Part shown: in pieces, positions 10,798 to 15,420 of the stretch | How positions within the stretch are numbered: position 1 is the stretch's first letter | Layout: each line of letters opens with the position of its first letter | Virus record (IMG/VR): IMGVR_UViG_2547132271_000004 | DNA length: 15,420 nt | Source of the DNA: a virus | Lineage: Duplodnaviria; Heunggongvirae; Uroviricota; Caudoviricetes | Reading direction: 5' to 3' (one strand) | Made by a program: the position numbers and the translations under genes | The notes under the pieces: model-generated | The model's database searches: none | What the model was told of the DNA's origin: nothing | The model's input: only the letters and a program-made list of their open reading frames with translations

Positions 10798-11083
10798 GAA
10801 GGTTTTCTCGTATTGGTTAAGATTCAGGACGTGAAACCAACACGGGGGGAGCGCCGCCCGACACTCTCGGCATCTCGCAGATCAACCCGGCATCGCGCAG
10901 GGGGTCAGGCGGCATTGTGGCGGCTCACGTCTGAGTGCCACGCTCCAACATATACATAAAAATCAGTATGTAAACACCTGTCAGTCAGACCGAACAACCA
11001 CGAAAGAACACGAACAAATAATTTACAAAAGAAGTAAACCATGGCCTATTATTGCTGTCTCTGACTACAACAAAGGACGCATC
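10798..11083. promoter_or_regulatory. Divergent control region between the capsid operon (minus) and the plus-strand cargo gene
   Basis: 286-bp gap with a GC-rich segment (10840-10940), an inverted repeat TACATA-N8-TATGTA (10953-10972), CGAACAA repeats (10991-11017), and a weak sigma70-like TTTACA ... TATTAT (11022-11052) upstream of the 11084 ATG. Confidence 0.4.
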
Positions 11084-11590
11084 ATGAATTTAAGCGCAAT
11101 GGTATACCCTGATACTTTCATAATTAATGGCGAATCATTCAGAGGTAAAAGAAACGCAAAAGAAAACAAGGTATTAATTCCATATACAAATGAACCGGAA
11201 GTAACTATTGGTCAACACATTATCCAGCGTGTCGGTAAAAACGAGATAAATCTAAAAATTATAGATATGAAGTTGCTTCCCAATGTAACCCGCAGACAGG
11301 GAACCAATCATCAAAATATGTTGACTCTCTATATTGAAAATATCACGGGAAATGAACATATGACGCCAACTAAAAGTAATACATTTAACATTGGTTCAAT
11401 TAGTGGTGATCAAGTGCAGATAGGTGAGCATAACCATATGCTGGTAAACATCAGCATCACTGAACTGGTTGAAAAAGTCGCTAAATCGGGGGATGTACAA
11501 GCCAAATCAGTATTAAAGCAGTTACTGGAAAACAGTACCGTTGCCAGCATTGTTGGGGCTGGCGCAAGTGCCCTAATAGGCTTACTGTAA
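11084..11590 (+). CDS. Hypothetical AT-rich cargo protein with C-terminal hydrophobic Gly/Ala-rich segment; function unknown
   Basis: 168-aa ORF with RBS AGGA before the ATG and its own terminator. It is the only plus-strand gene in the island and is visibly AT-rich relative to flanking genes (not computed). C-terminus STVASIVGAGASALIGLL is hydrophobic. No family recognised. Confidence 0.7.
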   Translation: MNLSAMVYPDTFIINGESFRGKRNAKENKVLIPYTNEPEVTIGQHIIQRVGKNEINLKIIDMKLLPNVTRRQGTNHQNMLTLYIENITGNEHMTPTKSNTFNIGSISGDQVQIGEHNHMLVNISITELVEKVAKSGDVQAKSVLKQLLENSTVASIVGAGASALIGLL

Positions 11591-11922: not shown

Positions 11923-12316
11923 CGTGCTGACCCGTCTGCTGTTTTGCCCTGTTCAGTGCGTCAGTGGCCTGCCCCTGCTGGCCTTTTTTGCCGCCCGGTC
12001 GCGCTGTTCGCGCACTGATCACGCTGTCTGCGATAACCTGCCAGCCCTGCCGCGTTTCGCCGTTCTGGCCTGTCCACTGGCTTACCTGCATGTTACCCGC
12101 CACGCTCACCAGTTCGCCTTTGTGGTGTTTTGCCAGTGCGTCGGCCTGTCTGCCAAACGCCAGGACGGATAACCACATCATCGCCGTTCCGTCATCTGCC
12201 TGGCTGCACGGAAGGGGGACCGCCATACTAGCCATCGTCATTTGTGTACCCTTGCTGGTGGTCTTTAACTGCGGGTCAGCCACCAGCCGCCCGTAAGCCG
12301 CTATCTGTGCTGTCAT
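11891..12316 (-). CDS. Single-stranded DNA-binding protein (SSB-like OB fold) with SSB-type C-terminal tip
   Basis: 141-aa product aligns by eye to the E. coli SSB OB core (MWLSVLAFGRQADALAKHHKGELVSVAGNMQVSQWTGQNGETRQ vs [44 protein letters not shown]). It has a Gly/Gln-rich linker and ends DDPYGDNIPF, like the host SSB tip DDDIPF. Confidence 0.75.
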   Translation of the reverse strand: MTAQIAAYGRLVADPQLKTTSKGTQMTMASMAVPLPCSQADDGTAMMWLSVLAFGRQADALAKHHKGELVSVAGNMQVSQWTGQNGETRQGWQVIADSVISARTARPGGKKGQQGQATDALNRAKQQTGQHDDPYGDNIPF

Positions 12317-12558
12317 GCTGTCTGCTCTCCGGTTTTAACGTTGATGGTTGTCACCTGTTCCGCTTCGGCAATCTCCCGTTCTGTCAGCGTGGCAAAGTTT
12401 GCAGCTGCCGTTGTCATGAATGCGCTAATCAGTTCGGGAAGTGCTTTCGCATATCCTTCCCCGGCGTTGCGGTCGATGATTTTTATCGACACCCTTAACC
12501 AGTGTTCCGTCAAATCAAGGGCGTGCGATTGTGATTTTTTTGTGTGCTTCGCTGTCAT
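12313..12558 (-). CDS. Hypothetical small protein adjacent to the origin
   Basis: 81-aa ORF whose stop overlaps the SSB start (ATGA). No family recognised. Confidence 0.45.
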   Translation of the reverse strand: MTAKHTKKSQSHALDLTEHWLRVSIKIIDRNAGEGYAKALPELISAFMTTAAANFATLTEREIAEAEQVTTINVKTGEQTA

Positions 12559-12603
12559 AGGCTTTATCTCACAGCAGTAAATTAAAATTTTTGCGTTTTA
12601 ACC

Positions 12604-12832
12604 CTTCACCTGTTCACCTTTTGATATTTTCCATTTAAATTCATACTGTTAAGGGGTGAACAGTTTCACAAAAACTATTCACCAACTGTTCACCACTGTT
12701 CACCCTTGAAGCTCAATAAACAACCAAAAAGGTGAACAGTGAATAGTTTGGTGAACAGTTCATAAATAACTGTTCACCCTATAATATACTGATATAAAAG
12801 ATAATTATGACAGGGTGAACAGTGGTGAACAG
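12604..12832. repeat. Iteron-type replication origin: about nine copies of GGTGAACAG in both orientations flanking an AT-rich segment
   Basis: GGTGAACAG or its complement CTGTTCACC read at about 12611, 12655, 12686, 12696, 12731, 12750, 12770, 12814 and 12824. AT-rich spacer ATAATATACTGATATAAAAGATAATTATGA at 12781-12812. It sits immediately 3' of the primase-helicase gene. Confidence 0.7.
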
Positions 12833-12845
12833 TTATTCAATAAGT

Positions 12846-14663
12846 TTAATTTTTGCTATCGTCATTAGTGACCGATACACATGATGGCATCCAGTCTTCT
12901 GATTCCTCCGTCAGTGTCACGTTTGAACGAAAACCGTGCTTCGTTTTCCGTTTCATATACTCCCTGCCATATTCCGCCATTGCCCCCGGCATATCTTTAC
13001 CGAAGCGCGTCAGTGTTACAGGTTTACCAAACCCATGTGCCCTCATATAAGCCAGATAGGCATGATAGAGATACCTGCGTGGGCTGAATGGCACAATTTC
13101 AGCATTACCCACTAACAGGCCATCACACATTACCGACGCCATGAGATAGCCGCAGAAGTCCACCAGCGAATCCCCCTCTCGCTTTATCGCCAGTGCTTCT
13201 TCAGATTTCTGCTGCTCATATAACAGGCGTCTGGCTTCGTCCTGGTCAGCAAACCGTGTAAGCAGATGGCGAATCACTACCGCCAGCTCACCTTCTATTT
13301 TTTCCGCCAGCATTGGATCGCGTTCGTTCTCCGGTACAACTTCCGAAAAATTGAATATCACCCGACGACGTGAGATCCCCCCGCTGCGGTCACTGAATGA
13401 CATGGCGTTATTGTTAACCGCCAGCACTACTGCCGGAATACGCGTTGAGTAGGGGGCTTTGTGTTTCGGGTCAATTGCCACCTTGTCACCGCCTGTAATA
13501 GCCTTAATCCCTGCCCCATCACCAGCGTAGCGGGTCATATCCGGCATGATAATCAGCGAAAAGCCAACCACTAACGCGCGTTCCCTTGCATCTTCCAGCG
13601 CCTTCATGCTTGCCGATACTGTGTTGGCCTTACCCGCCAGCATGGTGCAAATCTCCGCCATCACGCTTTTACCACTTCCCCCTGGACCTGTTACCTCAAT
13701 GAATAACTGCCAGTCGTACCGGTTCGCCAGCACCATGAATAATGCAGCCAGTACGCGATCCGCCTTGCGGTCATTCTCAGCCACCGAACGGCGTAACCAC
13801 TTCCAGAAATTCGGCGCATGTGTTGCCAGCGTTTCCCCCTCTGCTGGTGGGCTGAAAGGTAATTCACTGGCAATTAACAACCAGTCGTTTTTGTTATGCT
13901 CCCGAAAATTACCTGTTCTGGTATCAAATACCCCGTTACTGAATCCAATCAGGTTACGGGCTGTATTCCCCATTACAGGCAAACTTAACTTCATGGTATC
14001 GACCGCCGATTTAATGGCGTTCTGCGAATAGCTGATCTCCGCATCAATGAAAATCTGTGCCATAGCTCGCTGTAATTCTTTATCCTGTACTGGCTCCCAT
14101 ACAACGCCGTTGTAATGGTGAACAGTGTCAGAGTCAGCATGAATCGCCAGTTCACCGCCATAATGTGCCAGGAGAACTTCGCCGCGTTGACTTGCTCCCA
14201 TCTGGTTAAGCGCCAGTGATGAAGCGTTATCGTCTTTTACCCGCTCTTTTTTCTTTACAGGCAGTTCAACTACCTTTTTCTTTTCCGCCTGCTCTGCCCG
14301 TTCACGTTCCAGATATTCGCGCCAGTTCTCCCGTTTCTGGCTGTGCATTCCTTCAGGGTAATAATCAGCATCCCTGACACCTGCCACTGCCAGTTTCTGC
14401 CCGATGGTATTAACAAGCCCCGGACGCAATAACCCCGCCTGATAGAGACGCACGCGATAGCGTCCGTCCGGTACGATTTGCAGGTTGTCCAGTTCGGCAA
14501 GTTGTTGCTCTCCAAGCCAGACAGGTGGCACGTTATCGCCAGCCAGTCGCCCGTCCTGTTCCTGCCACTGTTTCGCATGTGCCCACGCATCACTACCCGC
14601 AAAAATGATGACTTCCGTCATTTTGTCACGCGGCTGGTGTTTTAAATTTGGCGCTTTTTTCAT
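12846..14663 (-). CDS. Primase-helicase / replication initiator (P4-alpha / D5-type C-terminal P-loop NTPase)
   Basis: About 605 aa from MKKAPNLK (ATGA overlap with the upstream gene; RBS GGAGAG). Walker A VTGPGGSGKS and Walker B-like LIIMPDM, with a D5_N/primase-C-like central region. Confidence 0.85.
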   Translation of the reverse strand: MKKAPNLKHQPRDKMTEVIIFAGSDAWAHAKQWQEQDGRLAGDNVPPVWLGEQQLAELDNLQIVPDGRYRVRLYQAGLLRPGLVNTIGQKLAVAGVRDADYYPEGMHSQKRENWREYLERERAEQAEKKKVVELPVKKKERVKDDNASSLALNQMGASQRGEVLLAHYGGELAIHADSDTVHHYNGVVWEPVQDKELQRAMAQIFIDAEISYSQNAIKSAVDTMKLSLPVMGNTARNLIGFSNGVFDTRTGNFREHNKNDWLLIASELPFSPPAEGETLATHAPNFWKWLRRSVAENDRKADRVLAALFMVLANRYDWQLFIEVTGPGGSGKSVMAEICTMLAGKANTVSASMKALEDARERALVVGFSLIIMPDMTRYAGDGAGIKAITGGDKVAIDPKHKAPYSTRIPAVVLAVNNNAMSFSDRSGGISRRRVIFNFSEVVPENERDPMLAEKIEGELAVVIRHLLTRFADQDEARRLLYEQQKSEEALAIKREGDSLVDFCGYLMASVMCDGLLVGNAEIVPFSPRRYLYHAYLAYMRAHGFGKPVTLTRFGKDMPGAMAEYGREYMKRKTKHGFRSNVTLTEESEDWMPSCVSVTNDDSKN

Positions 14664-14959
14664 TTCTGCTCTCTCCACGCGGCAATCATGTTTTTTAGTT
14701 CCTGTAGTTTTTTATCAACATCCATACATGACACATGGTTATTTCTGGAAAGCGGGATTTCCCGACTGAATCTGCTAATAAAGATCTCCACGTTCAGCGA
14801 ACTAAGAAATGAATAGCCATCACGGATAAAATACACACGGTCAAACATCAGTTCTTTTACCGTTACTCTGTTACCGTTCTTATCCAGATAAATAGCGCCG
14901 GGGATAATTTGGGGGTGTGCATAACCGCTGGCAGTCAAGCCAGATAAATACGTTCTCAT
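14660..14959 (-). CDS. Hypothetical protein (AT-rich cassette gene B)
   Basis: 99-aa ORF with RBS GGGGA upstream. Its stop overlaps the primase ATG. Visibly AT-rich. No family recognised. Confidence 0.55.
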   Translation of the reverse strand: MRTYLSGLTASGYAHPQIIPGAIYLDKNGNRVTVKELMFDRVYFIRDGYSFLSSLNVEIFISRFSREIPLSRNNHVSCMDVDKKLQELKNMIAAWREQK

Positions 14960-14965
14960 GATTAT

Positions 14966-15286
14966 TTATCCCCGATTTGAATCAGTATTCGCTTTCTTTA
15001 TAGCATTTAATGCATCTGTGGCATTTTCAATGGTGCACCGTAACGAAATATCAAAATGTCCAAGCATTGCCAGTAACAAACCGATATTACCCATATCAAT
15101 GCGCATGGCCTTTTCGTCATAGTCCTCATTTTCTGACGCATGCCACATCAGGCTACCAATTGACGCAACAGCCATTGATATATTGTCAGTAGCCCCATCC
15201 GCAGCGGAATAAATCTTTTTAGCAATATCATGCTCACAGTTAAAATGCGGATTAATCAGGTACTGGTAATTTGACATATCAGGCAT
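14966..15286 (-). CDS. Hypothetical protein (AT-rich cassette gene A)
   Basis: 106-aa ORF with RBS AGGGGG upstream, 6 bp from gene B. Visibly AT-rich with a sharp switch to GC-rich sequence at about 15287. No family recognised. Confidence 0.55.
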   Translation of the reverse strand: MPDMSNYQYLINPHFNCEHDIAKKIYSAADGATDNISMAVASIGSLMWHASENEDYDEKAMRIDMGNIGLLLAMLGHFDISLRCTIENATDALNAIKKANTDSNRG

Positions 15287-15420
15287 GGCACACCCCCTGA
15301 CGAATACGGGCGGCGAATACCATCACGCAGCCAGCCGGGGATTGCTGGCGTGCTTCCTGTTCGCTGGTGGCCACGATGTGAATCACGCGCGGTTGTGCGG
15401 TGCTCAGGGCGATAAAACGC
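15279..15420 (-). CDS. 3' end of an upstream GC-rich gene continuing beyond the window (product unknown)
   Basis: Minus-strand frame open from the window edge to TGA at 15281-15279, ending ...AARIRQGVCHA. The stop overlaps the start of gene A. Not in the ORF track because no start codon is in view. Confidence 0.4.
   Translation of the reverse strand, partial: RFIALSTAQPRVIHIVATSEQEARQQSPAGCVMVFAARIRQGVCHA

Follow-up and report, generated by a model that had tools for sequence, protein, structure and literature searches.

The window analysed here is the whole 15,420-nt stretch of viral DNA recorded as IMGVR_UViG_2547132271_000004 (Caudoviricetes). The element under study is a cassette of two small open reading frames (ORFs), ORF-A and ORF-B, located near its right-hand end on the minus strand. 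The original prediction, made from the letters alone, described an AT-rich pair of 106 and 99 aa, 6 nt apart, between a gene rich in guanine and cytosine (GC) and a primase. Coordinates and RefSeq starts agree with the sizes and the spacing, and the placement is correct as well, since the upstream Icd-like fragment has 62.7% GC and the replicase follows downstream. The features of the region are the following:

14966..15286, minus strand (start at 15286): ORF-A, 106 aa, ATG start; acidic product (isoelectric point, pI, 4.8), predicted two-helix hairpin; PHROG 15327, of a family confined to early operons of satellites
14660..14959, minus strand (start at 14959): ORF-B, 99 aa, ATG start; basic product (pI 9.4) of the DUF4222/RgdR family, predicted small beta-barrel followed by a C-terminal helix
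14960..14965, minus strand: spacer of 6 nt between ORF-A and ORF-B
15293..15297, minus strand: Shine-Dalgarno (SD)-like GGGGG of ORF-A, 6 nt before the ATG; duplex with the anti-SD of -10.7 kcal/mol
14973-14969, minus strand: SD-like GGGGA of ORF-B, inside the last ORF-A codons
15279..15420, minus strand: 3' part of the Icd-like gene (host cell division inhibitor), the first operon gene seen in the window, which runs off its end; product with 93% aa identity to the Icd-like protein of E2865
12846..14663, minus strand: replicase of the pri-rep type, 605 aa, ATG at 14663, with D5_N, DUF5906 and Pox_D5 domains
14259..14663, minus strand: part of the replicase gene coding for its N-terminal ~135 aa, conserved; right-hand flank of the exchangeable cassette

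The cassette is joined to its neighbours on both sides. The stop codon TGA of the Icd-like gene (15281-15279) overlaps the ATG of ORF-A (15286-15284) in a common string of 8 nt, ATGCCTGA, and the stop codon TGA of ORF-B (14662-14660) overlaps the primase ATG (14663-14661) in the 4-nt string ATGA. Identical starts are annotated by RefSeq in a locus that is 100% identical across the 921-bp query. G-rich SD-like boxes precede the starts of ORF-A, ORF-B and the primase, with anti-SD pairing energies of -10.7, -5.7 and -6.4 kcal/mol (the last for the ATG at 14663), respectively, against a background of -2.6 ± 2.65 kcal/mol. A good ribosome-binding site had been proposed for each ORF; this is true of ORF-A, where pairing is strong, but that of ORF-B is only moderate (top ~19% of positions). 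A mechanical ORF caller placed the primase start at GTG 14678. This start shows no SD pairing and was discarded, the ATG at 14663 being preferred by both SD energy and RefSeq. Furthermore, the ratio of non-synonymous to synonymous substitution (dN/dS) is 0.14-0.28 for both genes, and 0.14-0.18 for ORF-A, among E. coli alleles differing by up to 7%, which indicates that both are really coding and under purifying selection.

Concerning transcription, no sense-strand promoter-like or terminator-like site was found in 12300-15420 by consensus scans, the only kind used. In the identical locus L001, the same kind of scan gave a sole sense-strand promoter-like site, TTGACA-16-TAAAGT, ~105 nt upstream of the Icd-like ATG. 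These scans, together with the overlaps, fit a single transcript carrying the Icd-like gene, ORF-A, ORF-B and the replicase, so that the proposed membership of the pair in the same operon as its neighbours is upheld.

In 25 complete E. coli genomes, the chromosome matches the window over its full length (100% coverage, 97.8% identity), and the insertion site of the island in E. coli is between rcnR and thiM. The integrase and alpA genes sit just beyond the window and were read from loci 97.8-100% identical to it; the integrase is a tyrosine recombinase and the helix-turn-helix (HTH) regulator is AlpA (PF05930, 58.8 bits). In the RefSeq annotation of one of these loci (L002, 97.8% identical), the first half of the island consists of integrase, DUF6387, HTH regulator, YlcI/YnfO (reverse strand), Icd-like, hypothetical (ORF-A), DUF4222 (ORF-B) and DNA primase family protein, in this order. 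The second half contains small ORFs, the single-stranded DNA-binding protein (SSB), major capsid, prohead protease, portal, head-tail connector, HNH, and small and large terminase (TerS and TerL). Thus int, alpA and pri-rep lie in one orientation with a putative iteron origin after pri, and the island carries a capsid and packaging module of its own but lacks tail genes. A phage-inducible chromosomal island (PICI) of this gene content is a capsid-forming PICI, or cf-PICI (bioRxiv 10.1101/2022.09.08.507074). Judging from its genes, the window is an E. coli cf-PICI.

The early operon of Gram-negative PICIs and cf-PICIs such as EcCICFT073 and EcCIEDL933 has the same order: int, alpA, small ORFs, an rgdR-like gene, pri-rep, origin iterons and SSB (PMC6092414; bioRxiv 10.1101/2022.09.08.507074). 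The cf-PICIs of the latter study share the full capsid and packaging module and the lack of tail genes. The present island differs from EcCICFT073 and EcCIEDL933 in its low-GC allele pair, and the small ORF at the place of ORF-A is neither named nor studied in the accessible text of those papers.

ORF-B matches the Pfam family PF13973 (DUF4222) with 60 bits (gathering cutoff 27, E 1.6e-16, residues 17-67) and PHROG 285 with E 2e-21. Regarding the original prediction that neither protein belongs to a recognised family, ORF-B is therefore an exception, while ORF-A has indeed no match in Pfam or NCBIfam. The DUF4222 protein studied so far is RgdR (ECs1581), encoded in O-island 51 (OI-51, CP-933C) of E. 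coli O157:H7 (PMC10877973, PMC3378721). RgdR has 99 aa and a pI of ~10. It activates the LEE1 promoter and represses motility, its binding to DNA is weak and non-specific, and it has been proposed as a cofactor of other regulators (PMC3378721). In strain TW14359, CP-933C lies between roxA and phoQ and contains int, HTH, Icd-like, three small ORFs, a 99-aa DUF4222 gene, a replicase annotated as "helicase RepA family", SSB, PerC and capsid genes. We equate this DUF4222 gene with rgdR/ECs1581 because it has the same length and family and lies between the genes that the paper names.

ORF-B aligns with the CP-933C protein without gaps over 99 of 99 residues (E 2e-16). The two are alike in family, length, basic charge and collinearity, and both genes are the last small gene before a PICI replicase, which they overlap by 4 nt. 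They differ in that identity is only 34% and in pI (10.2 for RgdR and 9.4 for ORF-B). Their neighbours differ too: ORF-A lies upstream here, in contrast to a 154-aa and a 77-aa gene in CP-933C, and a D5-type primase lies downstream here, in contrast to a RepA-type helicase there. K35 and the motifs SG..ASG and RV...R.GY are kept between ORF-B and RgdR. Across E. coli, Klebsiella and one further homologue, the invariant DUF4222 positions are S6, G7, A10, S11, G12, P16, G21, D26, G29, R41, V42, R46, G48, Y49, F60 and F64. The predicted model of ORF-B, of low confidence (predicted local distance difference test, pLDDT, 60.5), has four strands (residues 23-53) and a C-terminal helix. In the Protein Data Bank (PDB), phmmer gave no match for ORF-B or ORF-A and profile searches nothing significant, the best profile E values across the ORF-A and ORF-B searches being 0.14 and 0.25. 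From these alignments, ORF-B is a divergent member of the DUF4222/RgdR family.

The position of this family is well conserved. According to the literature, every E. coli PICI analysed has an rgdR-like gene immediately before the replicase, and a DUF4222 gene was found directly before the replicase in L001, L002, L022-L025, L031 and L032. The RgdR-type allele is present in 1459 of 5426 complete E. coli genomes. Of the 30 records listed for it, 25 have the allele next to a replicase (annotated as RepA helicase, DNA primase family or DUF927) and the remainder are partial matches. In Klebsiella, DUF4222 is followed by the primase as in E. coli, and the order "DUF4222,Primase" appears in cf-PICI-type gene profiles of Salmonella (PMC10111431 supplement). 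Thus, the place of the DUF4222/RgdR family in E. coli PICIs is immediately before the replicase gene, irrespective of the type of replicase.

Neither Pfam nor NCBIfam nor PADLOC gave a match for ORF-A. Only a handful of relatives came from a word-indexed search and from an exhaustive run of phmmer, and these seeded a profile. The profile search retrieved 135 relatives of 100-108 aa from Klebsiella, Raoultella, Kluyvera, Erwinia/Pantoea, Phytobacter and E. coli. The family is acidic (median pI 4.5), with the core motif G-x-S-x-[IV]-G-[SN]-L-M-[FYW], then Y, then D-M-x-x-[IV]-G. The AlphaFold2 model of ORF-A (40-sequence alignment, pLDDT 81.7) consists of two long helices, 19-51 and 58-105. Foldseek searches against the PDB and the viral models of BFVD gave nothing below E 0.3, only generic hairpins. 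Among the best Foldseek matches are the anti-activator TraM and WXG100/EsxB, which resemble the model in having ~100 aa and two long antiparallel helices. However, these matches are not significant (E 0.75-3), no sequence relationship accompanies them, and the hairpin shape is too generic to indicate function. The remote-homology searches called for by the original prediction have therefore given a family to ORF-B, but only satellite relatives to ORF-A.

The genomic context of ORF-A relatives was examined in 26 loci, including E. coli, Klebsiella, Kluyvera, Trabulsiella, Serratia, Pantoea and Gilliamella. A same-strand replicase of at least 456 aa lies 288-1235 nt downstream of the relative in all loci except one, which is a short contig (25/26). 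The order around the relatives is int, AlpA, Bro/Ant in some cases, and small ORFs, and the replicases that follow belong to three classes: D5_N/DUF5906/Pox_D5, AAA_25 (RepA-like) and Zn-ribbon/Toprim/DUF927. Members were traced in about nine taxa besides E. coli, all of them in the array of small ORFs that precedes a satellite replicase. Hence, the ORF-A family is a conserved early gene of satellites from Enterobacterales to Gilliamella. The original prediction would have been weakened by finding the two genes to be conserved satellite regulators in relatives; ORF-B is one by its RgdR family membership, and ORF-A largely fits the description.

Two apparent relationships of ORF-A were rejected. 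The phmmer score to tetratricopeptide repeat (TPR) proteins of the kinesin-light-chain type came from one 36-aa stretch summed over 12 repeats; there is no Pfam TPR match at E <= 1, and the model is a single hairpin with no tandem repeats. Homology to the 154-aa and 77-aa genes of CP-933C received an hhalign probability below 1%. In addition, RefSeq and UniRef give the name "ubiquinol-cytochrome C reductase" to 100-106-aa homologues (P0073-P0165; Klebsiella, Erwinia, Raoultella, Phytobacter), a name that finds no support in sequence, predicted fold or genomic context. In some strains (L002:4849-5457, ST648; P0001, P0003), a small indel in the Icd-like gene produces an in-frame Icd-like/ORF-A fusion of 166-171 aa or more; RefSeq labels the Icd-like gene of the ST648 locus L002 a pseudogene.

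All the variants examined have small acidic helical proteins encoded between the Icd-like gene and DUF4222 (pI 4.8 for ORF-A, 5.0 and 5.1 for the 154-aa and 77-aa proteins of CP-933C, and 4.95 for a 72-aa protein of Klebsiella). This could point to a function directed at the helper phage or the host and not at satellite DNA, such as interference, cell-cycle arrest together with the Icd-like protein, or the neutralisation of a host or helper protein. The variable gene content of the Icd-like-DUF4222 interval among PICIs would be expected with changing partners, and tblastn found no match for either protein in 50,697 phage records, so that both look satellite-specific. However, neither resembles known PICI interference proteins or any PADLOC model, and ORF-A is under purifying, not diversifying, selection. 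We regard such a takeover function as quite unlikely.

The composition of the cassette is distinct. Its GC content is 40.7% (ORF-A 40.2%, ORF-B 41.7%; GC at third codon positions 0.38 and 0.45, respectively), compared with 51.0% in the primase and 50.5% in the island. In 100-nt windows, GC switches at ~15250-15300 and ~14600-14650, which are the cassette borders, in agreement with the sharp change noticed at both ends. Among 627-nt windows, the cassette ranks in the bottom 3-5% for GC, although its low GC is not unique, since the stretches 10950-11550 and 12450-13050 are equal or lower. Nor is low GC a trait of the families: it is limited to this allele pair and was ruled out as a family-wide feature by the ORF-A genes of Klebsiella and Serratia (52%) and by rgdR (51%).

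Comparison with other E. coli PICIs explains the switch. Their Icd-like gene keeps 91-94% nt identity up to query position 137-143, at the ORF-A start codon, where divergence becomes complete, and similarity is found again from query position 754, 4 nt ahead of the primase ATG. The same low-GC cassette lies upstream of both D5-type and DUF927-type replicases, and also in a non-capsid island at the same site. These homology breaks at the cassette borders show it to be one of several alternative modules swapped between PICIs by recombination in its conserved flanks, at the 3' end of the upstream Icd-like gene and the 5' end of the downstream replicase gene, and this accounts for the change in composition. 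The idea that the pair was acquired as a unit is sound in this sense, as ordinary satellite mosaicism with breakpoints at gene borders and 513 shared places in E. coli.

Regarding the pairing of the two genes, ORF-A was found in 513 places in 474 of the 5426 complete E. coli genomes, and this ORF-B allele likewise in 513 places in 474 E. coli genomes (471 with at least 80% coverage). This linkage does not exceed what is expected of genes 6 nt apart within one recombination module, and the co-occurrence in E. coli is no evidence of an obligate pair. In Klebsiella, the 72-aa gene (PHROG 2196) sits between the ORF-A relative and DUF4222. In Kluyvera, Trabulsiella and Serratia, a 112-122-aa protein (PHROG 6610) fills the slot of DUF4222 in E. 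coli, and in Gilliamella and Pantoea other small ORFs follow the ORF-A relative, so that ORF-A relatives occur without DUF4222 in these five genera. Conversely, in CP-933C-type islands rgdR is preceded by the unrelated acidic 154-aa and 77-aa proteins and there is no ORF-A, and RgdR-type DUF4222 has other small ORFs upstream in the 1459 E. coli genomes that carry it. The comparison of syntenic islands that had been suggested thus finds the pair kept in the E. coli allele and replaced by other small genes elsewhere.

These data bear directly on the function first proposed for the cassette, an acquired toxin-antitoxin (TA)-like or two-component anti-phage defence module. The adjacency of two small genes with oppositely charged products, their strict co-occurrence in E. 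coli and their atypical composition could suggest such a system. However, searches of Pfam, NCBIfam and PADLOC recognised no TA or defence family (in PADLOC, neither protein gave a hit at E <= 1), both sides of the cassette overlap other genes, no promoter of its own was found in the consensus scans, and the pairing is lost in other genera and in the E. coli islands with DUF4222 and no ORF-A. Moreover, the cassette lies upstream of pri, and the accessory and defence region of PICIs is reported downstream of it (PMC11364771). A known toxin or antitoxin domain, a separate promoter and pairing across relatives were looked for as marks of a type II TA system, and none of them was found. Lacking homology, autonomy and conserved pairing, this is the weakest of the rival explanations, and we consider it very improbable.

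Another possibility is that ORF-A and ORF-B are co-adapted acidic and basic partners. ORF-A would be an anti-activator or chaperone of ORF-B, and the pair a satellite switch acting on host transcription during induction through a Tudor/SH3-like contact with RNA polymerase or DNA. The ORF-A family could then be an unrecognised class of satellite-specific takeover factor, from Enterobacterales to Orbales. This is a speculative view to which we assign a low probability.

The conserved position beside the replicase raises the question of a role in replication. At least ten copies of a 10-nt iteron, GGTGAACAGT / ACTGTTCACC, in both orientations, occupy 12609-12852, in a stretch of 35% GC directly 3' of the replicase stop codon. 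This region is probably the replication origin of the island, as iterons after the primase are the published origin layout of Gram-negative PICIs (PMC6092414). The N-terminal ~135 aa of the replicase are common to the D5-type (window), RepA-type (CP-933C) and DUF927-type (KSC9) replicases, with 72-96% aa identity. No Pfam domain was found in this part, and PHROG 2850 and PHROG 864 were its sole matches. The shared module is fused to three different bodies, a D5-type primase-helicase, a RepA-type helicase and DUF927 (window 14259-14663, minus strand; L022:9005-9400; L025:4758-5200).

ORF-B, perhaps with ORF-A, might therefore be a replication accessory that helps the replicase in recognising or remodelling the iteron origin, or, via the N-terminal domain that the replicases have in common, in helicase loading or regulation. 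The overlap of DUF4222 with the replicase start (ATGA) is kept across the three E. coli replicase classes, all of which begin with the common ~135-aa N-terminal part encoded next to the cassette. The slot is taken by the PHROG 6610 protein in Kluyvera, Serratia and Trabulsiella, which makes the slot itself look functionally tied to the replicase, and RgdR binds DNA in vitro (PMC3378721). However, the upstream gene and the replicase N-terminal type do not covary. Such covariation was looked for and discarded, Kluyvera being the counter-example, with an E. coli-type N-terminal domain and PHROG 6610. Moreover, a 190-aa ORF separates DUF4222 from the replicase in L026 and L027, and cloned rep and origin of EcCICFT073 drive plasmid replication, with no upstream gene mentioned for the construct (PMC6092414). 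We consider this accessory role in replication unlikely.

Taking all these results together, it is likely that ORF-A and ORF-B are genuine genes of an AlpA-controlled early operon (Icd-like, ORF-A, ORF-B, replicase) in an E. coli cf-PICI, ORF-B being an RgdR-like regulator and ORF-A a protein binder. In the proposed sequence of events, activation of AlpA triggered by a helper phage would lead to the three proteins being made together. By analogy with RgdR, ORF-B would act as a small basic SH3/Tudor-like beta-barrel with weak binding to nucleic acid and a cofactor role in modulating transcription, and it could perhaps also contact the transcription machinery. ORF-A, an acidic hairpin, would most probably act by binding another protein, from the satellite, the helper or the host, and might do so as a dimeric four-helix bundle. 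Nevertheless, several points weigh against this interpretation. ORF-A has no significant structural or sequence match to anything characterised in the Foldseek searches of the PDB and BFVD or in the PDB profile search. ORF-B does not have the RGD tripeptide that RgdR carries at residues 20-22, showing P20-G21-A22 instead, and residue 20 in the RGD of RgdR matters for its effect on type III secretion (PMC3378721). Finally, to say that ORF-B works like RgdR carries over a host-side phenotype and not a mechanism.

In the left operon of satellite P4, genes of small proteins such as epsilon, which is the P2 helper anti-repressor, lie upstream of the alpha primase and are co-transcribed with it. The cassette resembles these genes in lying with a satellite primase-helicase; no sequence similarity to them was detected. 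Distant homology to P4 proteins is reported only for AlpA, Pri-Rep and Int of PICIs (PMC6092414).

These results place an RgdR-family gene in a cf-PICI and show that the slot defining the family is the place before the replicase, in most cases directly next to it, whichever of the three replicase classes follows and in about one third of complete E. coli genomes. Such conservation suggests that the native role of RgdR is in satellite biology and that virulence regulation is secondary. Furthermore, the acidic-hairpin family of ORF-A is defined as a recurrent satellite early gene, partly misnamed in RefSeq, and the interval from the Icd-like gene to the replicase as a recombination module with breakpoints at gene borders. 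A suspected defence or TA cassette can now be filed under the conserved PICI early operon, a reassignment that changes the field little.

Other features of these islands were also observed. In strain 2015C-4136CT1 (L001, 12687-28012), at the same rcnR-thiM site, the Icd-like/ORF-A/ORF-B segment is identical and the primase has equal length and annotation, and ProQ/FinO, PerC and other genes replace the capsid module. The combination of this early part with a non-capsid late part indicates that the early and late halves of the island recombine independently. In Klebsiella (L003-L005), the island with ORF-A, the 72-aa gene, DUF4222 and the primase is inserted between phage capsid and tail genes, a layout that matches the "helper-embedded PICI" configuration of PMC10111431.

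Lastly, a 168-aa ORF on the plus strand (11084-11590), antisense to the island operons, lies in the segment of lowest GC in the window (37.7% for the ORF; 34-38% in 300-nt windows). It is located in the region downstream of pri and SSB, where PICIs reportedly carry accessory or defence genes. No PADLOC match and no significant Pfam match was obtained for it, and it is a better candidate for cargo than the ORF-A/ORF-B cassette.

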